DNA of 64,000 bases from Candidatus Aminicenantales bacterium (GTDB lineage: Bacteria > Acidobacteriota > Aminicenantia > Aminicenantales > Saccharicenantaceae), in NCBI GenBank assembly GCA_049513915.1, contig JBEKVN010000013.1:1655-65654 (forward strand). Reading direction: 5' to 3'. The notes below the pieces were generated by a model. It was given only the letters and a program-made list of their open reading frames with translations. It had not been told where the DNA came from and did no database searches. The position numbers and the translations under genes are program-made. How positions within the stretch are numbered: position 1 is the stretch's first letter; each line of letters opens with the position of its first letter. Below are positions 2,068-45,747 of the stretch, piece by piece.

Positions 2068-2211
2068 GTCGACCGGGTCTTGTTCTGGGCGGCACCGAAG
2101 CCACCCTTATCCCCCGCACCCCGGGAACCAGTTTCGTCGGTTCCCCCCGTCGGACAAGCCGTCGGGTCCCCCCTCCGCCACGGGGTCTTTCGGGCGGCCT
2201 CGGTACCGCCC
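2068..2211. repeat. Structured intergenic repeat, module beta, copy 1
   Basis: Near-identical core to 41356-41509. Closing stem gggcggcaccgaagccaccc / gggcggcctcggtaccgccc. Lies between convergent genes. Confidence 0.9.
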
Positions 2212-2255
2212 TTCACGGACTTGGCTCCAGTATTTGATGTCCGCCGCGAAGCTTA

Positions 2256-5529: not shown

Positions 5530-6929
5530 AGCACGGCCTCCATACCTTTCCGGAGCAGGTCGTCGACCCGCCTCTTGGTCGCTGCCTCGGCGTAACAGCG
5601 GATCAGGGGCTCCGTGCCCGACATCCGGAGGAGGAACCAGTCGCCGCCTTCGAAGTCCAGCTTGATCCCGTCGATCGTCTCGACCCCGATGACCTTGCGG
5701 CGCCCGACGTCCGCTGGCGGGCTTTGGATGAGGGCCTTCAGCCTCTTGGCCCGCTCCGGAGTCAGGGGCACAGTGCGCTGGCCGCCGGCCACCGTCCCGT
5801 ACCGTTCGAACAGATCCTCCCGGAGCGACCGCAGGCCCTTGCCTTCGACCGCGACCATTTCCGCCACCAGAAGCCCGGCGAAGATCCCGTCTTTTTCGGG
5901 GAGATGGTCCTTGACGGCGATGCAGGCGCTCTCCTCTCCGCCGAAGATGATGTGCCCCTTCAGGAAGAGGTCGGCCATGTACTTGAATCCGACCTTCGTT
6001 TTGTACAGAGGAAGGCCGTATCCGGCGGCGATGCGGTCCAGGAGGTGGGTCGTGGTGATGGACCTGGCCACCCCGCCCCGCCATCCCTTGACGCGGACGA
6101 GATAGTCGAGGAGCATGGCCAGGATGAAGTTCTGGTGGATGAACGTCCCCTCCTCGTCGATGATCCCGAACCGGTCGCCGTCGGCGTCCGTCGCGACCCC
6201 GAGGTGACACTTTTTTTCGAGGACCAGGGTCTTGAGTTCGGCCAGATTTTCTTCCGTGCAAGAGGGGATCACGCCCCCGAAATAAGGGTCGATGTAGCCG
6301 TGGATCCCTTCGACGAGGATCTCGTTTTCCTCCAGGACCTCGTCCAGGTACTCTCGGCTCGTGCCGAAGAGGAGGTCGACGCCGACGCGCAACCCTGCCT
6401 TGCGGATGGCCGCGAAGTCGATCTTGTCCTGGAGGAATCCGAGGTAGTCGGCCTGGAGGTCGATCCGGGCGATGTTGTCCTTCGGTGAATAATAAGGAAC
6501 GTGGGAAAAACGCGGCATCAGCTTGCGAATTTCCTCTTCGATGCTGTCGGTCACCTCGGGAAGCGCCGGCGCCCCCGTCTCGACGTTGAACTTGAGCCCG
6601 TTATACCAGGGCGGGTTGAAGGACGCCGTGAAGTTCACGGCCCCCTGGCATTTTCGCTTGATGACCTGTAGGGCCAGGGCCTGAGACGGCGCGTCCCGGT
6701 CGGCCAGGTAGACGGAGATGTCGTTCTTGGACAGCAGTTTCGCGGCCTCAAGGGCGAACCGCTCCGAGAGGAAACGCGTGTCATAGCCGACCGCAAGGGA
6801 AACGGGCTGTCCGGGGAATTTCTGCTTGACGTGATTGGCCACGGCCTGGACGACGACCCGAACGTTGTGGAACGTGAATTCTTCCCCCATGAGGCCACGC
6901 CAGCCCGACGTGCCGAAACGGATCATCAT
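5526..6929 (-). CDS. Phosphoglucomutase/phosphomannomutase family protein
   Basis: FGTSGWRG, GYDTR, TASFNP (variant of TASHNP), DADGDR, GGEES, RMSGTEP. Confidence 0.9.
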   Translation of the reverse strand: MMIRFGTSGWRGLMGEEFTFHNVRVVVQAVANHVKQKFPGQPVSLAVGYDTRFLSERFALEAAKLLSKNDISVYLADRDAPSQALALQVIKRKCQGAVNFTASFNPPWYNGLKFNVETGAPALPEVTDSIEEEIRKLMPRFSHVPYYSPKDNIARIDLQADYLGFLQDKIDFAAIRKAGLRVGVDLLFGTSREYLDEVLEENEILVEGIHGYIDPYFGGVIPSCTEENLAELKTLVLEKKCHLGVATDADGDRFGIIDEEGTFIHQNFILAMLLDYLVRVKGWRGGVARSITTTHLLDRIAAGYGLPLYKTKVGFKYMADLFLKGHIIFGGEESACIAVKDHLPEKDGIFAGLLVAEMVAVEGKGLRSLREDLFERYGTVAGGQRTVPLTPERAKRLKALIQSPPADVGRRKVIGVETIDGIKLDFEGGDWFLLRMSGTEPLIRCYAEAATKRRVDDLLRKGMEAVL

Positions 6930-6937
6930 TTGCGAAA

Positions 6938-6966
6938 AAAGTACCACATGCCGCCTGGAATTGCAA
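6938..6966 (-). promoter_or_regulatory. Sigma70-type promoter of the phosphohexomutase gene (near-leaderless)
   Basis: TTGCAA-17-TACTTT, with ATG 8 nt downstream and no SD. Confidence 0.55.
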
Positions 6967-6976
6967 CTCTACAGAG

Positions 6977-7520
6977 GTCGGACGGGTCCTCTCGGCGCGG
7001 GTCTAACAGGGGGGCTGAAGGGCTGGCCTCCACTCCAGAGCACGGTTCTTCACGCCCGAGAATCGCGTCCTTCTCGGCACCAAAACAACTCGCTTGGCGT
7101 GCGCTACGCCAAGCTCAAACACGTTTTGGCAGTTCCCCCTGGAACTTCCCTCGAAGGGCGTGATTCTCGGGCTAAACCGCGCATGACGTTTCGGCCATTC
7201 CCCTCAGCCCCCCTGTATAAGCCGGGCCGCCCGTCCGCACATTCATAGGAACTGACAGGGACAGCCCCTCGGAGAAATCGTGAAAGGGTGGCGCGGCACA
7301 GAGGTCCGCGGCCCTCACACTCGAACACTCCCTCGTATCGGGAATTCTCCGAGTGTGAGGAGTGGAGGTTTAGAAGGGGGAATATGCCTCTCCGCCCAGG
7401 CTTGGAAAGGGCCGAAGGGGTGTGGCCGGAACGTCATGTGCGGCTTAGCGCAAGACGCACTCTGGAGTGGAGGCCATCCCCGAGGCCCTTTCCGTTGACG
7501 CGCCGGGACAGGCCCCGTCC
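6977..7520. mobile_element. Composite structured element (MITE/REPIN-like): alpha rod + gamma-related module + inverted truncated alpha, with imperfect inverted ends
   Basis: Left end gtcggacgggtcctctcggcgcg; right end cgcgccgggacaggccccgtcc. Internal homology to 28003-28484. No coding signal. Confidence 0.75.
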
Positions 7521-7527
7521 AAATATT

Positions 7528-8319
7528 CTAGCCGTTGCGTTTTTTTTTAATGGCTTCGCCGGTCATGGGCACGAAGCGGACCTCGAAAATCCTGCGGACG
7601 ACGGGCTTCCCGTTCGTTTTGGTGATGAGAGTCAGAGTCTGGTACGACCGGGAGTCGCCGAGCGGGACGACCAGACGGCCGCCCTCCGCCAGCTGCTCCA
7701 GGAGCCGCGGGGGGACGCTGTCGACCGCGCAAGTGACGATGATCGCGTCGAAGGGCGCTTGCTCCGGCCAGCCGAAAAAGCCGTCGCCGCTCCTGACCCG
7801 GACGTTTGCGTACCCCAGGCTTTCGAGCGTATCAGCGGCCCGCCGGGCCAGTCTTTCGTTAATCTCGATGGAATAAACGGAGGCCGCGAGGAGCGAGAGG
7901 ACCGCGGCCTGATAGCCCGAACCGGTTCCGATCTCGAGGACTTTGTCGCCCTTTCCGAGGGCCACGCTCTCGGTCATGACGGCCACGACGTACGGCTGGG
8001 AGATCGTCTGCCCCTCGCCGATCGGCAAGGGGAAATCTCCGTAAGCCTCGCTACGGAGCTGCGGGGGAATAAAAAGATGCCTCGGGACCGTCCGCAGGGC
8101 ATCGAGGATGGCGGGATCCCGGACGCCCCGGGCGGCCACCTGCTCCTTGACCATGGCGGCGCGTTTCGCGGCGAAGGGGTCTGCGGCAAGGCTCGCGGCC
8201 CGGCCCGGATCTCCGGGGCAGATGGAGAAAACCGCCCCTGCGGCAAACATGACCCAGAACGTTACCATGGCCGACAGGGACAGCCGGCCCGGGGGCTTTT
8301 CTTTAAGCCCATGCCTCAT
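7528..8319 (-). CDS. pcm: Protein-L-isoaspartate O-methyltransferase with an N-terminal hydrophobic extension
   Basis: VPRHLF, GQTISQPYVVA, VLEIGTGSGYQAA, GDGFFGWPEQAPFDAII, VRFVPM. Confidence 0.92.
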   Translation of the reverse strand: MRHGLKEKPPGRLSLSAMVTFWVMFAAGAVFSICPGDPGRAASLAADPFAAKRAAMVKEQVAARGVRDPAILDALRTVPRHLFIPPQLRSEAYGDFPLPIGEGQTISQPYVVAVMTESVALGKGDKVLEIGTGSGYQAAVLSLLAASVYSIEINERLARRAADTLESLGYANVRVRSGDGFFGWPEQAPFDAIIVTCAVDSVPPRLLEQLAEGGRLVVPLGDSRSYQTLTLITKTNGKPVVRRIFEVRFVPMTGEAIKKKRNG

Positions 8320-22149: not shown

Positions 22150-22222
22150 GGCTAGGTAGCTCAGTCGGTAGAGCGAAGGACTGAAAATCCTTGCGTCGGC
22201 GGTTCGATTCCGTCCCTAGCCA
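22150..22222 (+). tRNA. tRNA-Phe(GAA), CCA not encoded
   Basis: GGCTAGG/CCTAGCC acceptor stem, GCTC/GAGC D stem, AAGGA-CTGAAAA-TCCTT anticodon arm, GGTTCGATTCC T arm. Confidence 0.97.
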
Positions 22223-22227
22223 TTTTT

Positions 22228-24846
<2,619 letters not shown>

Positions 24847-24877
24847 GATGCGCCTCCCGGTCCCTTCTCGTTCTACT

Positions 24878-24906
24878 ATTTAAGCGCCCGCCGCCCGGAC
24901 TGTCAA
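24878..24906 (-). promoter_or_regulatory. Sigma70-type promoter of clpB
   Basis: TTGACA-17-TTAAAT on the minus strand. A divergent TTGACA sits at 24935. Confidence 0.55.
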
Positions 24907-24981
24907 GCGGCAGAGCCGGCCGCCGCGCGCCCCCTTGACAAACAGGAAAAAATCGATATTTATTCATGGTAGGAGTTGTTC

Positions 24982-25320
24982 ATGGAAGAGTTGGAAATCG
25001 GAAGCTGGATGACCCTCGACGCCATCAAGAAGTCCAAGGCCGTGGAAATCGTCGAGTCGGTCGGAAATCTGCAAACAGACCACAACATGTCCGTCTTCTG
25101 CGTCATCGAAGACGATTACCTCGAACTCTGTTACAGCGACTCCGCGGCCAACTCCCTGCGGCGTTTCGAAGATCGCGACGAATTCGAGAGGGCCCTCGAG
25201 GAGCGGAAAGAGGACGCGGGGGAAGCGCCCCCCGATGCCGACGAGGACCGGGACTACGACGAGGACGACGACGACGATGAGGCGGAATTCGACGTCGAGG
25301 ACGAATCCGAAGCCTATTGA
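24982..25320 (+). CDS. Hypothetical highly acidic protein
   Basis: AGGAG SD at 24971, host-like codon usage, fills the clpB-mutS gap, Asp/Glu-rich tail. Confidence 0.75.
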   Translation: MEELEIGSWMTLDAIKKSKAVEIVESVGNLQTDHNMSVFCVIEDDYLELCYSDSAANSLRRFEDRDEFERALEERKEDAGEAPPDADEDRDYDEDDDDDEAEFDVEDESEAY

Positions 25321-27953
25321 GGCTTGAGGCCGGGCCTCAAGCGGTCTTTGAGGCCGCCGAGGATATTCAGAGCTTCGAGGGGGGTGAGTGAGGGGAGGTC
25401 GAGCTCCTCGATTTCACTTCTCAATTCCTTGAGCAGGGCGAACTCGCGGTCCTCCGCGAAGAGCAGGAGCTGATTCCGGTCCTGCTCCTGCCGCGTCCGG
25501 TAAGCCAACCGGGGCACGCCGGCCTCGTCGAGCTCCTGCTTTTCCAGGTTGAACAAAATCTCCCGGGCGCGGTCGATCACCGCGCGCGGGATGCCGGCCA
25601 GCTTGGCGACGTGGATGCCGTAGCTCTGGTCGGAGGGTCCGGGCAGGATCTTCCTCAGGAACAGGACCTCGTCCTGCCATTCCTTGACCGCGACGTGGTA
25701 GTTCTTGATCCTCTTCAGCGTCAAGGCGAGCTCGGTCAGCTCGTGGTAATGGGTGGCGAAGAGGGTCTTGGCCCGCAGGCCTTCCCTCTCGTGGAGGAAT
25801 TCGGCCACGGCCCAGGCGATGCTCAGCCCGTCAAAGGTGCTCGTGCCCCGGCCGACCTCGTCGAGAAGGATCAGGCTCCGGGACGTCGCGTTGTGGAGGA
25901 TGCTGGCCGTCTCCAGCATCTCGACCATGAACGTGGACTGGCCGACGCTCAGAAAATCCATGGCCCCGATCCGGGTGAAGATCCTGTCGACGAGCCCCAG
26001 GGTCGCCGCTTTCGCCGGCACGAAGGAGCCCATCTGGCCGAGGATGGCGATCAGGGCGACTTGTCGGAGGTAGGTCGACTTCCCGCCCATGTTGGGCCCG
26101 GTGATGATCAGGATCTGGTTGTCCCCGCCGTCGATCTCGGTATCGTTCGGGATGAATGGCTCGCCCTGGCTCGTTTCGATGACCGGGTGGCGGCCCTCCC
26201 GGATGACGATGGCGTCGCCGTCGTTGACCTCGGGCCGGACGTAATTTCTCCGGGCCGCGCACTCGGCCAGGGCTAGCAGGACGTCCAGGCAAGCGACGTC
26301 GGCCGCGACCCGCTGGAGCCGGTGGGTCTCGCGCGCGACCGCCTCGCGGACCTCCAAAAAGAGCTGGTGCTCGAGGACGCCGATCCGTTCCTCGGCGTAG
26401 AGGACCTTCTCCTCGTAGTCCTTAAGCTCGGGGGTCAGGAAGCGTTCGGAACCGACGAGGGTTTGTTTCCGCATGTAGTCCGGAGGAACCTGGGGCAAGT
26501 TGGGTTTGGTCACCTCGATGTAATAGCCGAAGACCTTGTTGTAGCGGACCTTGAGCGACCCGATCCCCGTCCTCTCCCGCTCGCGTTTCTCCATCTGGGC
26601 GATGAACGTCTTCCCCGAACGGCTGACGGACCGCAGGTCGTCGAGCTCGGCGTTGTGCCCGTCCTTGATGATCCCGCCGTCCGTTAGAAGGAACGCGGGC
26701 TCGTCCAGGATGGACCGGTCGATGAGCCTGGCGACGTCGCCGGCGCTGTCCCAGCGGCCGAGGATCTCCCTGAAGAGCTTGGCCGCGAACGGGCCCAGCC
26801 CTTCCTGGATCGCGGGAAGCGGGGCCAGAGACTTCTTGAGGGCCACGAGGTCGCGCGGATTGGCCGCCGCGAGGGAGACCTTGCCCACCAGCCTTTCCAG
26901 GTCATGGACCGCCGCGACGAGCTCGCGGAGCGTCTGGCGTCCGATGGTCTGTCGCAGGGCCTCTTCGCACGCGTCGAGCCGGTCACATATGCCGGCCGCG
27001 TCGAATAATGGCTGAAGGAGCCAAGCCCGGAGCAGCCGCCCGCCAGGCGCGGAGACGGTGAAGTCGATGACGTCGACCAGGGAATCCTTGACCCGTCCAT
27101 CGCGGAGGTTGCGGATGAGCTCCAGGTTGCGGATCGTCACGGCGTCGAGGCTGAGGCGGTCGCCTGAATGGAGATAGGAGATGCGGTCGACGAGGGCCAG
27201 GGAATCCCGGCGGACCTTTTTCATATAATAAAGGAGGGCGCCCGAGGCGGAGACGGCCCGGTTCTTCCCCGCGAGCCCGAAGCCGGCCAGCGATTTGGCC
27301 TTGAAATGCTCCATGAGGACTTGGCTGGCCTGCGGATAATCGAAAAGCCAGGGTTCGGCCGGGCTCCGGGGGACCGAGCCGAGGCCGTTCGCGGCGAGGA
27401 CGCGGGTGAGCATCTCCTCGGCGCCTTCCGCGAAGAGGATCTCCCTGGGGGCGGCTCTGAACATCTCGTCGGCCAGGGACTTCAAGTCCGGCCATTCGCC
27501 CTCGAGCGTGAACATCTCCCCGGACATGAGGTCGGCTAGGGCCAGCCCCCAGCCCTGCGGCTCGAGGTCGAGCGAGGCGATGACCATGCGCTCCTTGGCG
27601 TCGTCCCCGTCGATTTCGACGGCCGTGCCCGGGGTCAGGACCTTGATGACCTCACGCTTGACGACGCCCTTGGCCGACCTCGGGTCCTCGACCTGCTCGC
27701 AAATGGCGACCTTGTGGCCGAGGCGCAGGAGCTTGGTCAGGTAGGAGTTCACGGCGTGGTACGGGACGCCGCACATGGGGACTTTTTGCCGGGAGGTCAG
27801 GGCCAGCCCGAGGAGCGGGGCGGCGCGCTTGGCGTCCTCGTAAAACATCTCGTAAAAATCGCCCAGGCGGTAAAAGAGGAAGGCGTCCTTGTGCTCGCCC
27901 TTGATCCGAAAATATTGCTCCATCATCGGAGTCAGGGAAGTGTCGTTGGCCAT
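25314..27953 (-). CDS. mutS: DNA mismatch repair protein MutS
   Basis: TPMMEQY, GDFYEMF, TGPNMGGKST, STFMVEM, DEVGRGT, ATHYHEL, SYGIHVA. Confidence 0.97.
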   Translation of the reverse strand: MANDTSLTPMMEQYFRIKGEHKDAFLFYRLGDFYEMFYEDAKRAAPLLGLALTSRQKVPMCGVPYHAVNSYLTKLLRLGHKVAICEQVEDPRSAKGVVKREVIKVLTPGTAVEIDGDDAKERMVIASLDLEPQGWGLALADLMSGEMFTLEGEWPDLKSLADEMFRAAPREILFAEGAEEMLTRVLAANGLGSVPRSPAEPWLFDYPQASQVLMEHFKAKSLAGFGLAGKNRAVSASGALLYYMKKVRRDSLALVDRISYLHSGDRLSLDAVTIRNLELIRNLRDGRVKDSLVDVIDFTVSAPGGRLLRAWLLQPLFDAAGICDRLDACEEALRQTIGRQTLRELVAAVHDLERLVGKVSLAAANPRDLVALKKSLAPLPAIQEGLGPFAAKLFREILGRWDSAGDVARLIDRSILDEPAFLLTDGGIIKDGHNAELDDLRSVSRSGKTFIAQMEKRERERTGIGSLKVRYNKVFGYYIEVTKPNLPQVPPDYMRKQTLVGSERFLTPELKDYEEKVLYAEERIGVLEHQLFLEVREAVARETHRLQRVAADVACLDVLLALAECAARRNYVRPEVNDGDAIVIREGRHPVIETSQGEPFIPNDTEIDGGDNQILIITGPNMGGKSTYLRQVALIAILGQMGSFVPAKAATLGLVDRIFTRIGAMDFLSVGQSTFMVEMLETASILHNATSRSLILLDEVGRGTSTFDGLSIAWAVAEFLHEREGLRAKTLFATHYHELTELALTLKRIKNYHVAVKEWQDEVLFLRKILPGPSDQSYGIHVAKLAGIPRAVIDRAREILFNLEKQELDEAGVPRLAYRTRQEQDRNQLLLFAEDREFALLKELRSEIEELDLPSLTPLEALNILGGLKDRLRPGLKPQ

Positions 27954-27967
27954 TGTGGAACCCCCTC

Positions 27968-27996
27968 ACTATACCGAGGCTCCGCCCAATTTTCAA
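27968..27996 (-). promoter_or_regulatory. Sigma70 promoter of mutS
   Basis: TTGAAA-17-TATAGT. Confidence 0.7.
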
Positions 27997-28002
27997 GAAA
28001 AG

Positions 28003-28484
28003 GTCGGACGGGTCCTGTCACGGCGCGCTTCTGGAAAGGGCCTCGGGGATGGCTTCCACTCCAGAGCGCGGTTTTTCACGCCGCAAGAATCGCGCCCTTC
28101 TCGGCACCAAAACAACTCGCTTGGCGTGCGCTACGCCAAGCTCAAACAAGTTTTGGCGGTTCCCCCTGGAACTTCCTTCGAAGGTCGCGATTCTCGGGCT
28201 AAACCGCGCATGACGTTCCAGCCATTCCCCGCGGCCCCGTCCTAAGCGCCGGGAGACCCCCCGCTTTCGGACGGGTGGCCCGGCGGTGCTCTCCGACGGA
28301 CGAGCGGAAGGGGATTGCGCGCGAGCGCTGGGGGGTCCAGGGGGCGGCTTCCCCCCGGTCCGAGGAAGGCTTCCGGCAGCCGAGGAGGGGAGGTTCGGGA
28401 GGGGGAACTTGCCCCTCCGCCCCACGGGGGGATGGGTGGAGCGAAGTCCGCTCGGAGACACCGCTGGGACAGGACCCGTCCGAC
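28003..28484. mobile_element. MITE/REPIN-like element with perfect 17-bp terminal inverted repeats (alpha rod + gamma module)
   Basis: gtcggacgggtcctgtc (28003-28019) / gacaggacccgtccgac (28468-28484). The left half is homologous to 7006-7216. Confidence 0.8.
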
Positions 28485-28537
28485 GGCGGCATTTGTGCGA
28501 TTGACAAATCGCGGAAAGCTATAGTAATCTCGACCCC

Positions 28538-29080
28538 GTGAACGCGCCGAATTATCTGACCCTGGCCCGGATACTGGCCATCCCGGCGCTCGTCGCCGTC
28601 CTTCTCACGGACTTCCAAGGCCGAGACATCGTAGGCACGGCGATTTTTGTCTTCGCCTCGCTCACCGACTGGCTGGACGGTTACCTGGCCCGAAAACGGG
28701 GGCAGGTCACGGTCATGGGTCAGCTCCTGGACCCGACGGCCGACAAGCTGCTCATCACGTCCGCCATCATCTGTCTCGTGAAACTCGGCCGCGTCCCGGC
28801 CTGGGCGGCGGTCGTCATCATCGGGCGGGAGCTGGCCGTTTCGGGGTTCCGGGCGATCGCCTCGTCCAAAGGGCTGCATATTCCGGCCTCGGGACTGGGG
28901 AAGGCCAAAATGGGCATCGAATCCTGGGCCATCGGCGCCCTGATCCTCGGCCCGATCTACTTCGGAAGGCTTTACATCCTCGCCCAGATCGGGCTCTGGC
29001 TGGTTATCGTCGCAGCTCTCGCCTCGGCCGCCGAATATTACGTCCGGTACGGACCGCAGGTCCTCTCAAAGCAGCCCTGA
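28538..29080 (+). CDS. pgsA: CDP-diacylglycerol--glycerol-3-phosphate 3-phosphatidyltransferase
   Basis: PNYLTLARI, TDWLDGYLAR...GQLLDPTADK, IIGRELAVSGFR. Confidence 0.95.
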   Translation: MNAPNYLTLARILAIPALVAVLLTDFQGRDIVGTAIFVFASLTDWLDGYLARKRGQVTVMGQLLDPTADKLLITSAIICLVKLGRVPAWAAVVIIGRELAVSGFRAIASSKGLHIPASGLGKAKMGIESWAIGALILGPIYFGRLYILAQIGLWLVIVAALASAAEYYVRYGPQVLSKQP

Positions 29081-29998
29081 AAAGGCCGCTTTCGTTTTTT
29101 CCAACCCTTCCCAGTTCTCGATGTTGTGAAGGCCCGGCGCCTTGGCCCAGCCGCGGCTCGCCCGCTTCAGGAGCCCGGACAGGACTTTGCCCGGGCCGAG
29201 CTCCACGCAAGCGTCGACGGCCATCTCTTTCAGGAGTTCCATCGATCTCGCCCAAAGCACGGCCCGGCTGACCTGGCGCTTCAGGGCGTCGCGCGCCTCC
29301 TCTCCTGTCCGGATAAGACGGGCGTCGACGTTCGTGATGACCGGAAAGTCCAGGTCCCTGAAGGTGACGGCGGCCAGGTCGGCAGCCAGACGGTCTTCCG
29401 CCGGTTTCATGAGCCGCGAGTGAAACGGGGCGCTGACCGGGAGCATGACTGAGCGGGGCGGCTTGATCAGGGCCAAGGCCTCTTCGACGGCCGCTTTATC
29501 GCCGGAAATCACGATCTGCTCTTCGCTGTTCCAGTTGGCGATCTCGACGGCCCCGGACTTCACCCCGTCCAGCCCCTTCTGGATCTCCGCGCCGGGGACG
29601 CCCAGGACTGCGGCCATGGCGCCGGCGCCGACGGGGACGGCCTCCTGCATGTACCTTCCCCTTTTGTGGACCAGGAGGACGGCGTCCTCGAAGCCCAGGG
29701 CGCCGGCGGCGACAAGCGCCGAGTATTCGCCGAGACTGTGCCCGGCGGCCACCTGCGGCTCCTTTTCAAGAAGGCGGGAGGCGATGACCCCGACAATGAG
29801 GAGCGCCGGCTGGGTGTTCCTGGTCAGCCGGAGTTCGTCCTCGGGACCATCGAAAGAAATCCTGGAGATGGAATAGCCGAGAGCCGCGTCCGCCTGACCG
29901 TAGAGCTCCCGGGCCAGCGGCGAGCGGTCGAAAAAGTCCTTCCCCATGCCGACGGCCTGCGACCCCTGGCCCGGAAACAGGTAGGCGATCCGGCTCAT
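29066..29998 (-). CDS. fabD: Malonyl CoA-ACP transacylase
   Basis: FPGQGSQ, TQPAL, GHSLGEY, VSAPFHS, ELGPGKVL. Confidence 0.96.
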   Translation of the reverse strand: MSRIAYLFPGQGSQAVGMGKDFFDRSPLARELYGQADAALGYSISRISFDGPEDELRLTRNTQPALLIVGVIASRLLEKEPQVAAGHSLGEYSALVAAGALGFEDAVLLVHKRGRYMQEAVPVGAGAMAAVLGVPGAEIQKGLDGVKSGAVEIANWNSEEQIVISGDKAAVEEALALIKPPRSVMLPVSAPFHSRLMKPAEDRLAADLAAVTFRDLDFPVITNVDARLIRTGEEARDALKRQVSRAVLWARSMELLKEMAVDACVELGPGKVLSGLLKRASRGWAKAPGLHNIENWEGLEKTKAAFSGLL

Positions 29999-30654
29999 GG
30001 CGTGTTCTCCTTGGCGGAATCGAGGCAGTCCTTGTTGATCCGGACCTCGGCCTGGCTTCGGATATTCCTGAGCCACTCGGCCACCTGGCGGGCCTTAAGG
30101 TTTTCCCGGACCCGGGCTTCGAGAGCGGAAATAATCGTCTCCATCTTCTCCGGCTCGAGCCCCTCCGCCTTCCGCTCCGGAACGTAGACCTCGCGGTAGA
30201 ACTTCTCCACGTCTCCCCGGGAGACGGGGACGGTCGCAGAGAAGCGTGTGAAGACGACCTTTCCATACCGGATCCGTTCCTCGAGATAAGGGCGCAGGTC
30301 GGCTTCGTCCAGGCCGAATTTCCGGAGCTTCGCCAGGAAAATATCCGGGCCCAGCTTCGCCCGGAGCGCGTCGACGGCCAGGGCGATCTCGTCCTTTCCG
30401 ATCGTCACGGGCTCGCGGGCGATTTCGAGCGCGATCTTCTGGTTGATGATGGCGTCGAGGACGGCCAAGCGCGGGTCGTCCGCCCGGCCCTCGACGTCCC
30501 CGGCGAAGAGCTCGAACTCGCGGGCGATCTGGAAGTCGGCCAGCGTTACGGCCTGTCCGTTGACGACCGCGACGAGACAATCCACGATCTGGGGCACGGC
30601 CAGGGATAGGCCTGCGAGGCCGAAGAAGAACAGACTGGTGATGGTTCTTTTCAT
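29995..30654 (-). CDS. SurA N-terminal-domain-like exported chaperone, no PPIase domain
   Basis: Signal peptide, IVDCLVAVVNGQAVT, C-terminal WLRNIRSQAEVRI. Confidence 0.75.
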   Translation of the reverse strand: MKRTITSLFFFGLAGLSLAVPQIVDCLVAVVNGQAVTLADFQIAREFELFAGDVEGRADDPRLAVLDAIINQKIALEIAREPVTIGKDEIALAVDALRAKLGPDIFLAKLRKFGLDEADLRPYLEERIRYGKVVFTRFSATVPVSRGDVEKFYREVYVPERKAEGLEPEKMETIISALEARVRENLKARQVAEWLRNIRSQAEVRINKDCLDSAKENTP

Positions 30655-30658
30655 GGTC

Positions 30659-33412
30659 TTAAAACACGTTCCCGAGAGTGATAAAGATAAGGGGCTTATG
30701 CCCGCGGGCCGCGTCGGGCGCGCCGAGCTTCCAGGCCAGCTCGAAGCGGACCGGCCCCAGCGGCGTTTTATAGCGGAGCCCGAAGCCCACGGCCGATTCG
30801 AGGCCCGTGAACCGGAAATCCTTGACTTGGGCGAAGACGTTTCCGAGGTCCAAAAAGCCCACCCCGGACAGGTCCTTAATGGCCGAGATCAACGGGAATC
30901 CCATTTCGGCGTTGACGAGGAACAACGCCTGGCCGCCGAGTGGGTGTCCCTCCGGGTCCCTGGGGCCGAGCATGTCGAAGTCCTCGCCCCGGAACGAATT
31001 GGCCCCGCCGGCGAAGTACCGCTCCGGGATGGAGATCTTGCCGTGCCCGAGGCCCAGGCGTGCCGTCAGCCCGAAATGGAGCCGGGAGAACGCGCTCCGG
31101 AAATACTGAAACTTAAAAAAGGATTTCCAGTAATCCGATTCCGTGCCCAGGACCGGCGAGGCCAGCTGGCCCACCCAGCTCAGGAAATAGCCCCTCTCTG
31201 GGTTGAGGCTGTCGTCCCTGCGGTCCCGGATCAGGCTCACGGCCGCGAGCGCCGTCGAATACGGCTGGAACCGGCGGTCGACATCGGACTCGGGAATTTC
31301 GAGCTTCGTCAACACCGTCCGCGTCCAGCTGAGCGTCGTGAGAAGCAGGAGGTCCCGGCGGAGGGGCCGGATCGTATTGAAGCTGAAGCCCCGCCGGTCA
31401 TAGGTGTAACTTATCCGGTCCTCCCGTTCGGTCCAGGCCAGGAATGACGGCTGCAGGGGAAGTCCGAAGAGGTAGGGCTGGTTCCAGGCGGCGATCGCCC
31501 GCTTCTCGATAAGGCTGTATTGGCCGACGAGGCTCAACTGGGCGGCCAGGCCCAGGACATTGCTCCGGATGTATTCTCCCGTCCCCCGGACCCGGTACTG
31601 GCTGTCCCAAAGGGCCAGGGAGTTGACGGCGTCCACGGTCTCGAAACCGATCCCGGCCCCGACGTAGTTTTTCTCTCCCTCGAACACCGAGATGACCAGG
31701 GTCTCGTTGTCCGCGTCCGTCTGGATCTCCTCGACGCGGGTCTCCGAGAAAATGCCCAGCCTTTCGAGGCGCTGCTTGGTCTCCTGGATGAGCGAATAAT
31801 CCGCTGGCGCCCCTTTCTTGATCCGGATCTCCTTGGCGATGACCGAGGCCCGGGTTGTCTTGTTCCCGGTGATCAGGATGTTCTTGACCGTGACGACCCG
31901 GCCTTCCTCGATCTCGAATTTCAGGTCGTAAAGGCCGTTCCCCCCGGTCTCGACCCGGGGGATGATCTTCGTCCCGCGCACGCCGTGGTTCAGGTAATAA
32001 TTATCGAGGATCCCGGCGTCCCGCTGGACGTTGGGCGGAAAGTACGGTCCGCCTTGGACGTCCACGAGCTCCTTGAGGAGCGCTCCGGCGGAAAAGAGCC
32101 GCAGCCCCGCGAAACTGATGGACTGGATTTTCCGCTGGAGCCCTTCCTGGACTTTGTACACGACGTGAATGCCATTGCCGTTTTCCGTCCGGCGCAGCTC
32201 GAGGTCGACCTTCGCGTCCGGGTAGCCGTTCGCCTGGTAAAGATATTCGATCTCGCGGGGAATGGCGAAGAGACGGTCGCGACTCAGGAGGTCGAAAAAC
32301 AGGACCCTCTCGCTCACCGCCAATTCCTCCTTGAGCCGCAGGGGCGAGAAGGCCTTGACGCCCTCGAAGGAGAAATCCTCGATCCGGTATTTCTTTCCCG
32401 GGGCCACAGCGTAGCTGATCCGGAGCTCGTTCTCCGGCCGTTCGATCCGGCTCTGCACGGTCGCGAAGACGTAGCCTTGTTTCCTCAAGTAGTTCAAAAT
32501 CCGGACTTCCCCCTCGGCGAGCCCCCACTCCTCGAAAATCCGTTCCTCCCAGATCGGGGTCAGGAGGCTCGTGGGGACCTTGGCCCCGGAGACCGCGATC
32601 GTGACTTTTTCCCGGGGATCGGCCTGGAGTTCGAGGCGGACGCCGCGGCCGGCCTCGTCGAACCGCTCGGCGGCGAGCTGGACGGAGGACCTCGGGTATC
32701 CGAGAGACGTATAGTAGGTTTCGAGCGTCTGGATGTCCTTGTCGAGCAACGACGGCGCATAGAAATCCCCGGGCCGGGTTTTCAGGCGTTTCTTGAGGTC
32801 GGCGGCTTTGGCGGAACCGGGGCCGGTAATATCGACCGACTGGATCCTGTATCGCTTCCAACCGCTGATCCTGAAGTAAACGTCCACTTGGGCGTCACCC
32901 GGGTCCCGCCTCGTGCTGGGGCGGACGACGGCGTCGAAATAACCCTCCCCCCTCAAGGCTTCCTTGAGCTCGTCGATGGCTTTCGGGACCCGGTCTTCGG
33001 CGAACACGCCCCCCGGCCGGAAGGTCTCCGTGGCCTCTCGCAGCCGCGAGGACTTGATGCCGGAACCGGTGAAATAGACCCGGCGGACGATGAGGTTCCT
33101 GGCGAGGAGAAACGTCAGCGCGGCGTTCGGTTCGCCGCTCCGCACGACCTGGATGTCGGCGAAGAGTCCGGTCCGGAAAGTCTGCTTGACGACCCGGTCG
33201 ATGACCGCCCGGGAATAGGTGTCCCCGGGCTTGATGGAGATGAGGTCGCGAAACGCCGCGGGCGCCGGCTTGCCGTCGACGAGGACGGTCACGCCGGTGA
33301 CGACCGCCGGGGGGGTCTCCGGCGCCTGGCCGGCCGCGGGAGAAGCGAGCGGGAAAGACCCCGCCGCGATCACGGCCGCGACAAGGAGACGGAACATGCG
33401 CCGGACGGACAT
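30659..33412 (-). CDS. Omp85 family (BamA/TamA-like) outer membrane protein with multiple POTRA domains
   Basis: Signal peptide, POTRA repeats (ITGNKTTR...LERLGIF), FAGGANSFRG, GFGLRYKTPLGPVRFE, C-terminal Phe. Start placed at MSVRRM. Confidence 0.9.
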   Translation of the reverse strand: MSVRRMFRLLVAAVIAAGSFPLASPAAGQAPETPPAVVTGVTVLVDGKPAPAAFRDLISIKPGDTYSRAVIDRVVKQTFRTGLFADIQVVRSGEPNAALTFLLARNLIVRRVYFTGSGIKSSRLREATETFRPGGVFAEDRVPKAIDELKEALRGEGYFDAVVRPSTRRDPGDAQVDVYFRISGWKRYRIQSVDITGPGSAKAADLKKRLKTRPGDFYAPSLLDKDIQTLETYYTSLGYPRSSVQLAAERFDEAGRGVRLELQADPREKVTIAVSGAKVPTSLLTPIWEERIFEEWGLAEGEVRILNYLRKQGYVFATVQSRIERPENELRISYAVAPGKKYRIEDFSFEGVKAFSPLRLKEELAVSERVLFFDLLSRDRLFAIPREIEYLYQANGYPDAKVDLELRRTENGNGIHVVYKVQEGLQRKIQSISFAGLRLFSAGALLKELVDVQGGPYFPPNVQRDAGILDNYYLNHGVRGTKIIPRVETGGNGLYDLKFEIEEGRVVTVKNILITGNKTTRASVIAKEIRIKKGAPADYSLIQETKQRLERLGIFSETRVEEIQTDADNETLVISVFEGEKNYVGAGIGFETVDAVNSLALWDSQYRVRGTGEYIRSNVLGLAAQLSLVGQYSLIEKRAIAAWNQPYLFGLPLQPSFLAWTEREDRISYTYDRRGFSFNTIRPLRRDLLLLTTLSWTRTVLTKLEIPESDVDRRFQPYSTALAAVSLIRDRRDDSLNPERGYFLSWVGQLASPVLGTESDYWKSFFKFQYFRSAFSRLHFGLTARLGLGHGKISIPERYFAGGANSFRGEDFDMLGPRDPEGHPLGGQALFLVNAEMGFPLISAIKDLSGVGFLDLGNVFAQVKDFRFTGLESAVGFGLRYKTPLGPVRFELAWKLGAPDAARGHKPLIFITLGNVF

Positions 33413-33413
33413 T

Positions 33414-36400
33414 CTAGAACCTTCTCCGATACTTGAGGTCGAGGCTAAACCTTCCCAGTTCGTTGCGGACGGCAACGAGGGAGAATTCGCTCCGGACCTC
33501 CCATTCCATGCGGTAGATCTCGTCCCGCTGGGTGGCCAAATTGGTCGAATAGATGAAGAGAAGGTTCCGCGATAGTTTTTTTCCAACGGTCAGGCGGGCC
33601 GTCATTTCCGAAGAGGTGCCGCTGACGAGCGGATCGATGCGGAACCGGTCCAGCGTGAAGAGCCCCTCGGCCCTCCTCTTGGCCTGGTCGGCGATCTGGA
33701 AAGAGAGGAGCGAGGCCGTGCTGATCGTCGTGCTTCTCTCGGGGGTATAGGAATAGGTGTTCTTGAAAGCTTCACCCAGGGCGAGCAGGGCCAGGACGTC
33801 CTCAGGCGGAAGCGGCGGCGACGAGGTGAATTCAGGCTTGATGCGGCTCGCATACCCGGAGAGAGTCATGGTCACTCGATAATCCTTGACGTACGTCTCG
33901 GCCCGGAGCTCCAGGTAGGGCTCCGTCGAGGCGGGGTTGACGAAGCTGACCCGGCCTTTGAGGATCCGGAAATTCTGGTCCTGGAAGATGAACGTACCCC
34001 GGAGGATCTCCATGTCGCCGAGGAGGACGGGGTCGGCGGCGCTGCCGGTCAGGCTGAGGTTGAACCGTCCCGTAACCTTGCCCAGCGAATTGTCCATCAG
34101 GGCGTTGTCGGTGGCCCGGAGACGGAGGTTGAGCGTCAGGTCGTCGAAAAACGAGGGCGCGGCGTTCGGCTCGTAGAGGGACGCCGAGGAGAAGCTGGTG
34201 CTCTCGTAGAGCTCCCGCCGCCAGGTGAGTCTCTTGATCAGAAAATCGCCGTCCAAGACGAACTGGCGGCTGTCCTTGATCAGGCGGACACTGCCGTCCA
34301 CGAGGGCCCTCGTCCGCTCGAGGGGGGCCAACTGCATGTCCTTGCCGTTCACGGCGACGTCGATCGTTTCGACCCCGGATTTGCCGAGGACGATGGACCC
34401 CGACCCTGTCAGGTCCCCGCCGCCGAGCTTGCCCTTCAGCTCGGTGAGGGTGAGCCGTCCGTCCTCGAAATGGATGCTCCCGGAATAATCGGTGATGGGG
34501 TGCGCGAACCGGGGAATGGGCAGCAGAGGGCCCTGGAAATTGATGGTGCTCGCGAAGTGGGGTGAGGATCGCGTCCCGCTGATTTCCGCCGTGAAGTCCA
34601 AGCGCCCCTGCGGCCCCGTCCAGGGAAGGAGAAGGTCGAGGTTCGTCAGATATCCCTTGAGGGTTCCGGTCAGGGCATCCCCGGACACCGGCGTCGCGAG
34701 GACGGCCTGGATTTCGTTGTCGCCGGGGGTTACGGCGCTCTTGAGCTCGAGAGAAAGACGGTCCCCCGTGTAGTCCAGACTGAAGTCCCCCTTGGCCGCG
34801 GTCGTCCGGAGGGGCGGGACGAGGAGGTCCTGCACGGTGAAATGGCCGGTCAGTCTGTCCTTCTCGAAAATGCCGCGGCCCGATACGTCGAGCGCCAGGA
34901 GGCCCTTCACGTCCGGAATGAGCAGGCCGATATTGATATTTTCCGCGCGGAGGTCGACGTCGAAAGCCCGGCTGACCAGGCCGACGAGGGCCCGGCCCTG
35001 GACCCGGCCGCCGTAAATGTCCGCTCCGATTTCAGGAAAGTCCAGCGTCCCGTCTTTCCAGTCGAATCGGCCCGCGACTTTTCCGAAAGTCTGTCCGAAG
35101 GCCTTGATTTCTGGGCTGGAGAATGTCCCGCCGACGTCCTGGCTCGTGGCCGTCTGAATCAGCCGGAAGTCTCCGGCGGCCCGGCCCTGAAGCGGGATGG
35201 GGATCTGGAGCAGGGAGAATACCCTGGCCACATCGCCCTCGGTGTTCCGGAATTCGACATCGGTTTTCTCCGGCCCGGCCGAGACCTGGATGTCTCCCTT
35301 GAAGTCGGGGTCGTCGACGCGGAATTTACCCTGAAATTCCTTATTGAAGATCACGCCTTCACCCTCGACGAAGGCAGCATCGAAGACATCGAACCCGGCG
35401 GGCTCGAAGGACCCCTTGATCGAGACCACGGGATTGTCCGAACTCCCGGTCAGCCGGACGTCGGCATATCCGGCTCCGCGGATTTCCGGAAAATCAAGCT
35501 CCGTCGCCAGGATCAGGGAGACGAATTCCCGGGCCTGCTTGACGTCCCGGACCGTTCCGCGGATCTCCGTATCCATGGTCCCGTTCAACGTGACCGTGGA
35601 ATGCGCCTCCAGGCGGGCAAAGCCCGTCTGGATGTCCCGGGTTGTAATGTCCAGGATCGCCGTCACGGGGTCGAACCGGACGCTGACGGCCCCGCGCAGC
35701 GAAAAACGGTTTCCCTCGCGGTCGAGCGTCTGGTCCCGGAATTCTCCTTCGGCTTCGAGCTTTCCCTTGGAGACGACGAACGTTCCCCAGGCCGGGGATT
35801 TCACGGGCCAGGCGATCTTGAGGTCGGCCATGACGGGGTCGAGGAAGGCGCCCCTGACCTGGCCCTCCACCTGGTCGCCCCTGAACACGATGGCCATGGA
35901 TTCGGGCGTCAGGCCCGTCTTCTGGATGTCCAGGCCTACCCGCCCGCCTTTCCCGAAGTCGATATCGATCCGGCCGCGGACCCGCCCCGCGGGGACGCCG
36001 CTGATGACGAGCCCGTCCGCGGCGATGTCGGAAGACAGGGAGACTTCGCCGCCCTTCCGCAGGAACTTCCCCTGCCCGCCGGCCTTCCCCTTCCAGCTGA
36101 ACGGGAGATGGATGAGCGCCGCGGCGTGGGCCATGTCGACTTCAAACCGGCAATCGAGGTCGATCTCAGGGTCCTGGATATTCTTCAGCCGGCCGTCGCC
36201 CTTCAGGGCCAGATCGGGACCTTCCACCGTTAACCGCTGGATCTTGATCTCCTGCCCGGTCCCGGAGAGCGCGACGTTCAGGCTGCCGCCGAATTCGATT
36301 CTCTCCGGAAGAGAGGTGAAGGCGACCTTCTCCGACGTCGCCTTGAGGCTGAACTCCCCGCCCCGCTGGGTGAAAAGGACTTTCAGGCCGCTGGCTTCGA

Positions 36401-36869
36401 CGGTCCCGCCCTCGGTCTCGTAGGAAAAAAGTCCATTTTCGATGATGCCGCGCTCGATGACGAAGGGCAGGGCAACCGGGGGCGCCGGACGCTTCGCGGG
36501 GCTTCCGGCCGGCTCCGCCCGGAGACGGATTTCGGGCTGGTCGATAATGACCCCGATGGACTTCTCGTTTCGCAGGAGCGAAAGGAACGATATCTCGATC
36601 CGGACCTGGCGCGCCCGGAATAGCGGCGGGCCGGAGAGGGAGCGGACGTCCTCGAGGATGATGGCCGGCGGGATATAGGACACCCGCAGCTCGCCGTACG
36701 CGATGGACTTCCGGAGCTCGTTCCGGATCTGGCCCAGGAAAATGTTCTTTCCTGCGATGACCCCCCCGGCGAGGAGAAAAAGGACGAAGAGCGTCGCCGC
36801 GAGCCGCCGGACCTTCCTGATCAGGTCCTGGATGTGCTCGCGGATCCGGATATGGGGGTGGATTCTCAC
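33414..36869 (-). CDS. tamB: Translocation/assembly module TamB (DUF490/AsmA-like)
   Basis: N-terminal anchor, beta-taco-like body, C-terminal [17 protein letters not shown]...TVGKKLS. Directly upstream of the Omp85 gene. Confidence 0.85.
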
Positions 36870-37510
36870 GTCCGGACGTTCCTCCAGTCTTTCAGAAAGC
36901 GCTCGATGCCGGCATCCGTGAGGGGATGATGGACGAGTTTGGCCATAACGGCGTACGGGATAGTGGCGATGTCGGCGCCCAGGAGGGCGGCTTCCACGAC
37001 GTGCCTGGGATGACGGACGCTGGCTACGATGATCTCCGTATCGATCCTGTAATTTTCGAAGATCGTGACGATCTCCTCGATGAGCGCCATGCCGTCCTCG
37101 GAGGCGTCGTCGAGTCGGCCGATGAACGGGCTCACGAATCGGGCCCCGGCCTTGGCGGCGAGCAGGGCCTGGCTGGCCGAAAAAACGAGCGTCATGTTGA
37201 CCGGGACGTTTTCCGCGGCGAGAATCTTCGTGGCCTTCAGCCCTTCGATGCCGACGGGGATCTTGACGACCACGTTGGGGGCGATCCGGGCCAGGGCGCG
37301 GGCCTCGGGGAGGATCTCCGCGGCCTTGGCCGCGACCGCCTCCGCGGAGACGGGCCCGGTCACGACGGCGCAGATGTCCCGGATGAGGTGCTCGAAGGCG
37401 CCGCTTTCCTTGGCGACGAGAGTGGGGTTCGTGGTCACCCCGTCGAGGATGCCCCAGCTGGCCACTTCACGGATTTCATCGAGGTTGGCCGTGTCGAGAA
37501 AGAACTTCAT
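36866..37510 (-). CDS. tal: Transaldolase, small TalC/Fsa type
   Basis: [35 protein letters not shown]. The Glu/Phe pair favours transaldolase over Fsa. Confidence 0.9.
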
Positions 37511-38289
37511 GACCCCTCCTTGCCGGATTTTTTTCCCGCCACCGTGTTCGACAGGACCCCGATGCCGTCGATCTGAACGTCCACCCTGTCGCCGGGGGAC
37601 ATGGGCCCGATGCCGGCCGGCGTTCCGGTGGCGATGATGTCGCCGGGCAGGAGCGTCATGATCTGCGAGACAAACCGGACCAGGAAAGGAACGGAAAAAG
37701 TCAGGTTGGACGTTGCCCCGGACTGGACGACCTTGCCGTTGAGGAAGGTCTTCAGGTGCAGCGCGCCCGGGTCGAGGTCCGTGACGATGCACGGGCCCAC
37801 GGCGGCGAAGGTGTCGAAGGACTTGGCCCGCGTGAATTGGACGTCTTTCGCCTGCAGGTCCCTGGCCGTGACGTCGTTGAAACAGGTGTATCCCAGGATG
37901 TAGTCCGCGACCGGGTCCTCCTCCCTCAGGAGGCGGGCTTTCTTCTTGATGACGACGGCCAGTTCGCCTTCGTAGTCCACGCGGGCGGACATCCCGGGAT
38001 AATGGATCTCGCCCTGGGGGCCGATCACGGCCGTCGACGGTTTCAGGAAGATGAGCGGCTCCTCGGGAACGGCGTTCCCCAGTTCCCGGGCGTGGTCGCT
38101 ATAGTTGCGGCCGATCCCGATGATCTTGGACGGTTCGACGGGGGCCAGGAGCTTGACCTCGCCCATCGGGATCGGGCTGTCGCCGATGCGGAAATCCTTG
38201 AAGATCGACCCTTTCAGGGGAAAGAGAAATTCTTCCTTAAGGATTCCATAGAGGATTTTCTTCCTGTACCGGAACCGGTAGATTTTCAT
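37507..38289 (-). CDS. Fumarylacetoacetate hydrolase family protein
   Basis: [42 protein letters not shown]. Confidence 0.93.
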
Positions 38290-38291
38290 GC

Positions 38292-39383
38292 TCAGTTCCC
38301 TTTCAGGTACACGGGGCCGCGCTCCGCCTTCGGGCTTTCGTTCCCGTTCGTGTCCACGGCGGACACGGCGTAAACATAGGCTTTCCCTTTCCCGGCGGTC
38401 GCGTCGGTGAAGGAGTTGCCGGCCACGGGGACGGCGGTCAAAGAGACGAATTCGAACCCGCCCTCCTCCTTCCGCCACACCCTGTAGCCGGCGATGTCTT
38501 CCTCGCGGCCGGCGTCCCAGCTCAGGGAAATCCCTCCGGGTCCGGAGAGGGCGACAAGGCCGGCCGGGGGGTCGGGCGGGAAGACGTCCTTGGCCATGAC
38601 GTCGCGAGGAGCGGAGTTCGCGCTCTCCACGGAGGCACCGGGGCCGGCGGCGCAGGCGCGAACGACATAGGAGTAGGGCACGCCGAACGAGAATCGCCTG
38701 TCCCCGAACGTCCGGTCCGCGATCGGGGAAGACGTCAGCTTCTCGGGTTTCCCGCGGCCTTCGGCGCGGTACACGTTATAGCCGGCGACCTCCGCCGGAG
38801 CGGACCCGTCGGTATTGGACTGGGGAGGGGCCCAATCGATCTCGATCCTGTCTTTGAAGACGCGCACGTCCTGGATTTCGGGAGGCAACGGGCAGACCCG
38901 CGTCTCGACCACGATCGGGGCGCTGAACTTGGAGGGGCGCTTCTTCGAGTCCAGAACCCGGACGGCGAAAGCCATGACGGAAGGCCCGGCTTTTTCCCCG
39001 AAGATGGGATAGGCGAACATGACATCCGGGGACCGGGTTGCGGCGGCGCGGGGGGACGGCTGGAACTCCTTGGGCAACACCCGGCGTCCGAGCCGGCCCC
39101 GCGCTTCGAAATCCGGGAGTCCGAGGGGCATCTTCCCCTCCCCCGGCCGGAGCCCGAGGACCCAGATCTCCGCCGCTTCGATCGATTCGAGCGGCCGGCC
39201 GTCGATCGATTTTGCGGGGTTCGTCCATTCCAGGATGACCGCGCCGCCCTGCTGATGGGCGGTGAGGCCCTCGACGGCCTGCGGCCCGCGGGCGAGGGGC
39301 GGCTGAAGGGGACCTTTTCTCCCGCAGGCGGCCGCCAAAAAGGCGGCCAGCCCGATGGCGATAATTCCCGCAGGTCGCTTCAT
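38292..39383 (-). CDS. Lipoprotein with an N-terminal CGxKGPL motif and fibronectin type III repeats
   Basis: Lipobox LAAA-C, CGRKGPLQPP, FN3 motifs (GYNVYR, GYRVWR, YAVSAVD..GNES). Confidence 0.85.
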   Translation of the reverse strand: MKRPAGIIAIGLAAFLAAACGRKGPLQPPLARGPQAVEGLTAHQQGGAVILEWTNPAKSIDGRPLESIEAAEIWVLGLRPGEGKMPLGLPDFEARGRLGRRVLPKEFQPSPRAAATRSPDVMFAYPIFGEKAGPSVMAFAVRVLDSKKRPSKFSAPIVVETRVCPLPPEIQDVRVFKDRIEIDWAPPQSNTDGSAPAEVAGYNVYRAEGRGKPEKLTSSPIADRTFGDRRFSFGVPYSYVVRACAAGPGASVESANSAPRDVMAKDVFPPDPPAGLVALSGPGGISLSWDAGREEDIAGYRVWRKEEGGFEFVSLTAVPVAGNSFTDATAGKGKAYVYAVSAVDTNGNESPKAERGPVYLKGN

Positions 39384-41302: not shown

Positions 41303-41355
41303 CGCGTCTCCTTGTAAGCGCTTTCATCATAATGGATGGAGGCGTATAAGTAAAG

Positions 41356-41578: not shown

Positions 41579-41633
41579 GCCCGTTGAATTAAGATACCGA
41601 TAACTTGCGACCGGTATACGGAGGGAGCGGCTC

Positions 41634-45747
<4,114 letters not shown>

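Follow-up and report, generated by a model that had tools for sequence, protein, structure and literature searches.

Large structured blocks interrupt several intergenic regions in the genome of a Candidatus Aminicenantales bacterium. The question they raise is what kind of repeat they are, and how they move and change. An original prediction, made from the DNA letters of one stretch, viewed them as a modular family of non-coding elements in which one shared end motif is combined with different structured inner parts. The source genome (G000) is a draft of 3.49 Mb in 77 contigs, with 61.8% G+C and 93.9% completeness; 2867 genes were called by a heuristic of our own (90.7% coding). The window, that is the whole stretch of 64,000 nucleotides analysed, corresponds to positions 1655-65654 of contig C13 (C denotes contigs). 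All the genomes compared are draft metagenome assemblies, and cross-species comparisons involve relatives at only ~75-87% DNA identity. The family is real and genome-wide: the blocks are small non-coding, hairpin-forming mosaic repeats, made by a common end motif and interchangeable inner modules. They represent a mosaic system of the REP/BIME/NIME type; a RAYT-like enzyme acting in trans probably handles them as folded single strands, unless they are reshuffled through recombination at the two ends, called L and R.

The shared end motif L has the core GGGTCCTGTC, and forms a REP-like end unit of ~20-28 nt. The motif GTCGGACGGGTCCTGTC, searched with up to 3 mismatches, is found 7 times in the window versus 0.60 expected, and none of 100 shuffles reached 7. 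Five of the seven matches are element ends (6977+, 7507-7523-, 28003+, 28468-28484-, 41356+); the remaining two (43203 and 52536) reside inside coding DNA and look like chance matches. The L-like copy at 2068 features 4 mismatches, and hence escapes this search; it is homologous all the same, because 2068-2151 is 92% identical to 41356-41439. In G000, 25 L copies adjoin modules. Their consensus is aaGg.C gGAC GGGTCCTGTC.CGGcGcgtc, in which GGGTCCTGTC is conserved at 90-100%. Solitary L-like matches (up to 2 mismatches) number 63 in G000, and the 58 located in coding DNA are taken as chance. That the motif bounds every structured block does not hold for the whole genome, where many copies of the modules E and delta are solitary, L being missing at up to 2 mismatches.

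The partner end R (CACCGCCGGGCCACCCGTCCG) is an inverted copy of L minus CCTGT, as seen most clearly in orthologous D units of the relatives G003 and G004. The coordinates predicted for it (7221-7237, and inverted at 28268-28284) were exact. In DNA folds of three elements L and R pair as a basal stem and CCTGT-type bases are left unpaired, which matches the bulged stem that had been proposed. Folding energies were -85.7 kcal/mol for 6977-7240 (z -10.8), -57.7 kcal/mol for 28266-28486 on the minus strand (z -3.1) and -49.1 kcal/mol for 41356-41560 (z -3.6); with 200 shuffles per element, 0 of 200 were as stable in each of the three. A minimal hairpin, GGACGGG-N4-10-CCCGTCC, was also considered as an abundant stand-alone REP and discarded, as its counts equal those of controls. 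With a TCCTGT loop this hairpin is found in one instance only, in G003, at the site orthologous to locus 1.

Table 1. Elements in the window, their parts, and the state of seven loci in G000 and in related genomes (G001 to G007). A slash marks the joints of empty alleles.
Feature	Position	Strand	Composition in G000	Basis	State in relatives
Locus 3	2068-2230	+	degenerate L (2068-2085), then module E (~2084-2212)	E match C13:3738-3866	G002, G003 empty: TTAA/TACGCGTAGG; G004, G001 other cargo with L-like left ends
Locus 1	6977-7523		two tail-to-tail units		G003 only a 26-nt palindrome of two L starts; G002, G004 other cargo; G001 none of this repeat family
Unit 1 (locus 1)	6977-7237	+	L-alpha/beta-R: L 6977-6993; alpha 5' arm and core ~7009-7040; nested beta 7056-7176; alpha 3' core and arm ~7182-7216; R 7221-7237	self-comparison, module catalogue, DNA fold	
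Spacer (locus 1)	7238-7278	.	between the two tail-to-tail units	without match in the module catalogue	
Unit 2 (locus 1)	7279-7523	-	L 7523-7507; short alpha without beta ~7490-7400; module epsilon 7375-7296; degenerate R-like end ~7301-7281	motif search, self-comparison, module catalogue	
Locus 2	28003-28484		L-alpha/beta-R and R-D-L composite		absent in G001-G004: AAGG/CCG/CGATTGACAA; G005 has another insert here, of E type
Unit 3 (locus 2)	28003-28245	+	L 28003-28019; alpha with nested beta; degenerate R-like end 28232-28245		
Unit 4 (locus 2)	28268-28484	-	L 28484-28468; module D 28467-28286; R 28284-28268		
Locus 4	41356-41558 (41356-41560 in the allele comparison)	+	L 41356-41372; module E 41372-41510; short R-like end 41549-41558		left flank GTAAAG and right TTGACC box common to all genomes; G002 E with nested delta; G003, G004 L-D-R; G005 delta; G001 only GTCGGCCGGGGCC
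Locus C1			L and alpha		G007 empty; five different states in others
Locus C16			L-D-R		G002, G004 empty; G003 L and alpha remnant
Locus C3			L-E		G003 empty; G002 L and D fragment; G004 L, E-like and alpha; G005 cargo-free L, then L-D-R

The two large blocks are made by two units each, and the opposite orientation that had been noticed corresponds to a tail-to-tail arrangement. The region 7059-7226 is 90% identical to 28086-28253 by self-comparison, and 7456-7520 is the inverted complement of 28006-28070 (86%). Units 3 and 4 constitute a composite with perfect 17-nt inverted L ends. The element at 2068-2230 is located between the stop codons of two convergent genes, that at 41356-41558 directly upstream of a conserved TTGACC box. 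As predicted, -35 boxes and stop codons are spared: in six genomes the elements directly adjoin conserved TTGAC(A/C) boxes and stop codons. No transposase is found inside the elements. At three loci (window 28501-28506 and 41567-41572, and ~118340 of C1 in G000) elements end ~0-16 nt from a conserved TTGAC(A/C) box. These are divergent promoters, and the inserts of other species stop at about the same point, which may reflect either selection against promoter hits or a real target preference.

By a catalogue made with BLAST and regular expressions, 79 module loci and at least 6 hairpin modules were identified in G000. The original prediction had expected many copies genome-wide, and copies are indeed not few; it had also distinguished the modules alpha, beta and gamma, and was right that different hairpin modules are interchangeable, while the types exceed three. 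Matches number 28 for alpha-5', 20 for alpha-3', 14 for beta, 30 for delta, 26 for E, 12 for D and 4 for epsilon. Alpha copies are short (18), carry beta nested in the apical loop (12) or carry other inserts (~5), the apex being without insert in some copies and carrying beta or delta in others. L stands before alpha, D, E and delta, and module D is nearly always found as L-D-R. One composite, L alpha(x) .. R- D L-, is found 4 times in G000.

The repeats mark the genomes of relatives as well. L resides in all 7 congeneric genomes besides G000: an L 14-mer, allowing up to 1 mismatch, is found in 21, 34, 16, 4, 13, 11, 22 and 8 copies in the eight congeners (G000 included), the reversed-motif control giving 0-2 per genome. 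The 547-nt block has matches in 15 of 41 related genomes. All 7 genomes of the genus and all 5 genomes of a second genus contain matches to alpha/beta; in the second genus the match at the DNA level is limited to the beta core. Beta sits there in a diverged alpha-like scaffold, and features the same branched fold, with compensated stems and changed loop sequences. Public records in which this repeat occurs bear the titles of Candidatus Aminicenantes or Aminicenantales MAGs. The exact 18-mer GGTCGGACGGGTCCTGTC occurs in 37 stretches of public genome contigs, ~10 from Aminicenantes-type records; the other stretches, in high-G+C genomes, are probably due to chance. Alpha core and exact L 18-mer are also present in a MAG titled Terriglobales (DATKJS01..., loci L021, L027, L110, L121), the label or binning of which may be off.

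The stems of the modules co-vary and the cores are constant. In 53 distinct alpha units, own arms pair at -31.0 kcal/mol versus -24.1 kcal/mol with the arms of other copies, and no foreign arm pairs as well in 18 of the 53. The outer stems of E are 85.3% paired, versus 71.7 +/- 1.5% (maximum 77.7%) in 500 partner shuffles, in a set of 23 distinct pairs, of which 2 are mis-anchored; a single position shows as many as 5 types of pair. The arms of REPINs are reported to keep complementarity (Bertels and Rainey, 2011). Mismatches on the E+ strand are A:C in 26 cases and G:T in 8; read on the opposite strand, these A:C mismatches would be tolerated G:T pairs. Among copies that are related, this excess is a hint of single-strand use. 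Altogether, the evidence is good for turnover and structure-preserving evolution.

Structured RNA genes or cis-elements, in the form of a multi-copy family of small or regulatory RNAs with helices kept by selection on the transcript, are a reading very improbable on balance. It accommodates the strong co-variation of helices around constant internal loops, the branched asymmetric alpha-beta fold shared by two genera, in which stems are compensated and loops differ, and the excess of A:C over G:T on one E strand. It is opposed by the location of the copies. Of 32 alpha units, 30 lie between genes, and alpha shows no preferred orientation relative to its neighbours (11 in divergent gaps, 8 in convergent gaps, and in tandem gaps 6 sense and 5 antisense); E (5 vs 3), beta and D behave alike, and delta leans sense (11 vs 3). 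Many copies are found 20-50 nt from both adjacent genes, which leaves no room for signals of their own. No Rfam match was obtained over the elements, even at E <=1, the gathering score being reached by tRNA only, and presence/absence and nesting of modules are typical of mobile DNA. A tRNA gene at 22150-22222 is the sole Rfam match in the window. For window positions 5600-8300, no matching RNA data set was found.

Seven loci were compared, each with 3 to 6 relatives (Table 1). Synteny with five congeners is preserved throughout the window, its breaks coinciding exactly with the elements. Empty alleles were found at five of the seven loci (2, 3, C1, C16 and C3), and alleles made by L only at the remaining two (1 and 4), in a relative or in a metagenome contig. 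At locus 4, metagenome contigs from three runs of three studies pass from 41371 or 41368 to 41565 over 8-11 letters, so that L remains alone. Among contigs of four metagenome runs compared with 24000-43999, this joint was the only informative one; a skip of 28074-28198 has a side of just 25 letters and may derive from another alpha copy, and no contig bridges locus 2. Shuffling of the modules had been predicted, and is seen as exchange of cargo behind a fixed L at orthologous sites (locus 4, C16, C3). Judging from the aligned alleles, L can reach a naive site with cargo, and then persists while the cargo changes. The AAG preceding L belongs to the element and not to the target, because the empty alleles of locus 3 lack it and the C4 and C21 composites carry it in mirror image at each end. 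The outer stems were also considered as pre-existing target hairpins. The empty alleles of loci 2 and 3 show no hairpin, and stems therefore arrive with the element.

In agreement with what had been noted in the window, no direct repeat was seen at any junction, and none of the 5 empty-allele loci features a target-site duplication, at a flank divergence of 15-25% under which a duplication of 2-3 nt would be hidden. The repeats have thus little chance of being ordinary MITEs of a DDE transposon with an autonomous copy outside the assemblies and L as terminal inverted repeat. Such MITEs would feature inverted ends, as the composites do with their perfect 17-nt inverted L, and draft metagenome assemblies often lose multi-copy insertion sequences. 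Besides the missing duplications, however, no inward-facing L pair 1-3 kb apart occurs in the 8 genomes (same-contig pairs are ~0.3-0.6 kb apart, by eye), DDE_Tnp_1 and rve domains were not found in G000, and the stems vary freely, unlike inverted repeats bound by a transposase.

Different cargo behind orthologous L copies, at three loci, may alternatively be the product of recombination. The same repeats would be reshuffled, not by a Y1 enzyme, but by ectopic gene conversion or template switching through the short homology of L and R, or by a site-specific recombinase acting on L. This is held to be fairly unlikely. L and R, being common to several module families, provide homology on both sides; in G005 a cargo-free L directly precedes a second unit, L-D-R; and no enzyme is linked in cis. 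A homology of 17-28 nt is short for RecA-dependent exchange, and recombination alone fails to explain the first arrival at empty sites lacking L (loci 2, 3, C1, C16, C3). Syntenic arrays of variable content are known from the Neisseria NIMEs, and a site-specific recombinase has been proposed there to act on dRS3, the repeat corresponding to L, in NIME arrays (PMC1797815); a gene of the IS110 type was not found in G000.

In a related and unlikely view, drawn by analogy, L would be a docking site like dRS3 or integron attC, and a single-strand or site-specific enzyme would swap hairpin cassettes behind GGGTCCTGTC at fixed sites, often just upstream of -35 boxes. If so, a cassette-exchange system for structured non-coding DNA would exist in a deep-branching phylum.

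Y1 genes of G000 encode one IS200-like TnpA and 7 RAYT-like proteins. Five of the 7, scanned against the NCBIfam profile REP_Tyr_transpos, scored 55.9-81.8 bits, and one passes the cut-off of 80; the catalytic Y is replaced by F in one of the 7, by eye. Repeats of their own, 25-35 nt long, reside on both flanks of 5 of the 7 RAYT-like genes and on one flank of a sixth, which denotes a working REP/RAYT biology in G000. The repeat GGGGACGGTCCTGKTTT is found on both sides of a 236-aa RAYT-like gene (C11:73937-75293), in a classical-looking REPIN/RAYT pair. It counts 65 copies in G000, mostly inverted pairs ~60 nt apart, and resembles the L core by eye; 12 copies are found in G003 and 0-2 in the other six genomes. 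The C11 RAYT was rejected as mobiliser of L, since no relative above 35% identity is found in the other 7 genomes and GGGGACGGTCCTGKTTT is nearly confined to G000 and G003, L being present in all 8.

Four further RAYT-like genes are located in G000 at C21:44819-45481, C51:26046-26783, C4:82423-83115 and C3:126133-127080 (own flanking repeat families AATTCGGTGACACA..., GGGGACACAATAC..., GGGGTCAAATCTACGCAATGCCAGTTTCC). The C51 gene has its own repeat on one flank only, and the C3 protein features a DnaA-C-like tail. The terminal repeat of the second of the RAYT-like genes in C2 shares GGTCGGAC with the L terminus; the similarity, 8 nt, was judged compatible with chance and the candidate was dropped.

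The repeats themselves are not associated with such genes. L, R and modules flank none of 16 Y1 loci (8 from G000 and 8 from relatives, inspected with 1.5 kb on either side): 14 lack any of them, and 2 have a lone one-sided match more than 1 kb away. In G000 the module-associated L nearest to a Y1 gene is ~3.8 kb apart, and the flanks of the IS200-like tnpA (C6) contain no L, R or module. No Y1 reading frame turned up when 64 loci (1.6-8 kb) of other genomes were inspected; they surround matches to alpha or L, and chance matches in unrelated phyla account for many of them. No RAYT clade was found in all 8 genomes, and G002 has a single RAYT-like gene yet 13 L copies. The orientation of modules relative to local GC skew is unbiased (alpha 7:8, E 5:7, delta 7:7, D 2:3), by a proxy that is weak, skew being tiny and negatively correlated with gene strand. 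A profile search of the 93.9%-complete draft of G000 gave no match to PF01548, PF02371, PF07282, PF00078, PF01609 or PF00665, that is to IS110 (either domain), TnpB, reverse transcriptase, DDE_Tnp_1 or rve. PF04986 (IS91) had no match in G000, with the control likewise silent. The basal stem had been proposed as recognition site of a mobilising enzyme, and copies were to be sought beside Y1/RAYT, IS110, IS91 or reverse-transcriptase genes. No copy has been found linked to a mobilising enzyme so far, and the RAYT whose REP resembles L is found in G000 only.

Repeated segments of 0.5-1.3 kb, revealed by self-comparison, are in 9 of 10 inspected cases parts of paralogous genes (sigma-54 activators, kinases, others), and not insertion sequences. 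A 1.28-kb segment at C50:14353-15636 has 5 other matches and almost no called gene. In the window, a 323-nt stretch at 46325-46647 (C13:47979-48301) has 4 further copies in the genome self-comparison, and may be a paralogous gene segment. A separate family of ~125-nt repeats, starting with CAATCCCCTTCGCGGGATTCC... and counting ~47 copies (e.g. C1:98648-98775 and C2:145679-145808), is hairpin-forming and sometimes carries nested inserts; none resides in the window.

Y1 is the sole candidate class detected in G000, and ties to L by analogy. The reading preferred here, put forward tentatively and at somewhat under an even chance, is that of non-autonomous mosaic hairpin repeats of the Aminicenantes lineage, cut and rejoined in trans by a Y1 enzyme, a class suggested by elimination, other families not being found, and by analogy with E. 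coli TnpA-REP. The modules bracketed by L and R are alpha, either plain or with beta or delta nested inside, and D, E, delta and epsilon; the elements would act as folded single-stranded DNA. An HUH tyrosine enzyme (RAYT-like, Y1) would read the mismatched basal stem in trans, and might cleave between C and T of the bulged CCTGT before rejoining the ends. The use of alternative cut sites could lead to excision, insertion or exchange of modules, as proposed for E. coli BIMEs.

The blocks extend mosaic repeats of the REP/NIME type to the uncultured lineage Aminicenantes. Natural contrasts on the movement of repeats are provided by alleles of one site that are empty, reduced to L or loaded with different cargo, and by textbook-looking REP/RAYT pairs in the same genome. 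The blocks also explain breaks in synteny alignments, and should be masked before predicting promoters or small RNAs in these genomes.

Comparison with known systems places the repeats near some families and apart from others. In common with DDE MITEs they feature inverted L ends; no duplication, parent element or DDE domain was found. They differ from IS200/IS605 PATEs, as the single IS200-like tnpA of G000 has flanks free of L, R and modules and TnpB was not found. Like REPIN-RAYT systems, G000 holds REP doublets flanking RAYT-like genes, and the repeats feature inverted L/R doublet pairs, with arms that co-vary in alpha and E. Unlike REPINs, they have no GTAG tag (the consensus of 25 L copies being aaGg.CgGACGGGTCCTGTC), L flanks no RAYT (0 of 16 Y1 loci), the L-R spacer is made by modular hairpins of 100-250 nt rather than by a short linker, and L occurs also in genomes without the RAYT whose REP it resembles.

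CGTC-type REPs, as set out by Di Nocera et al. 2013 (PMC3733652), are a class without dedicated transposase, which includes the dRS3 of Neisseria, and some REP dimers are regularly embedded in longer palindromes; both traits recall the repeats described here. In CGTC REPs the stem, of 8-9 bp, starts from A/T pairs, the loop measures 4-5 nt and the tail is CCA, whereas the L stem is G+C-rich, measures 5-7 bp and has a 6-nt TCCTGT loop. L fits neither the GTAG nor the CGTC sequence definition.

REP/BIME and REPIN-RAYT systems of Enterobacteria and Pseudomonas are likewise made by intergenic palindromic units in inverted hairpin pairs with complementary arms, and linker and copy number vary between strains. 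E. coli TnpA-REP depends on unpaired bases within the stem of the REP, cleaves between C and T, can act hundreds of bases away and recombines parts of BIMEs (PMC3333891); the L bulge carries the corresponding CC/T.

Neisseria NIMEs are the nearest in architecture. Their arrays differ in that dRS3 (ATTCCCN8GGGAAT) is unlike the CGGG-TCCTGT-CCCG inside L and absent here; in that the cargo of the repeats described here is made by long hairpins with co-varying stems, nested in each other; in that the arrays described here are short (1-2 units) and reside in another phylum; and in that the IS110-type phage transposase was not found in G000. NIMEs were proposed as recombinase substrates, and said in 2007 not to occur outside Neisseria (PMC1797815). 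The literature that surfaced on palindromic repeats of Aminicenantes, in partial form, contained none on such repeats. Even so, the original label of a possibly undescribed system is too strong for the kind, as the architecture matches NIMEs (PMC1797815) and REP/BIMEs (PMC3333891). The 20-bp dRS3, a short unit with internal inverted repeat, flanks more than 100 families of unrelated RS elements, 50-200 nt long, in arrays without a dedicated transposase beside them (PMC1797815, PMC3733652); L likewise precedes alpha, D, E and delta. In both systems the arrays occupy syntenic intergenic positions and vary in content between genomes, as do the seven loci compared here.
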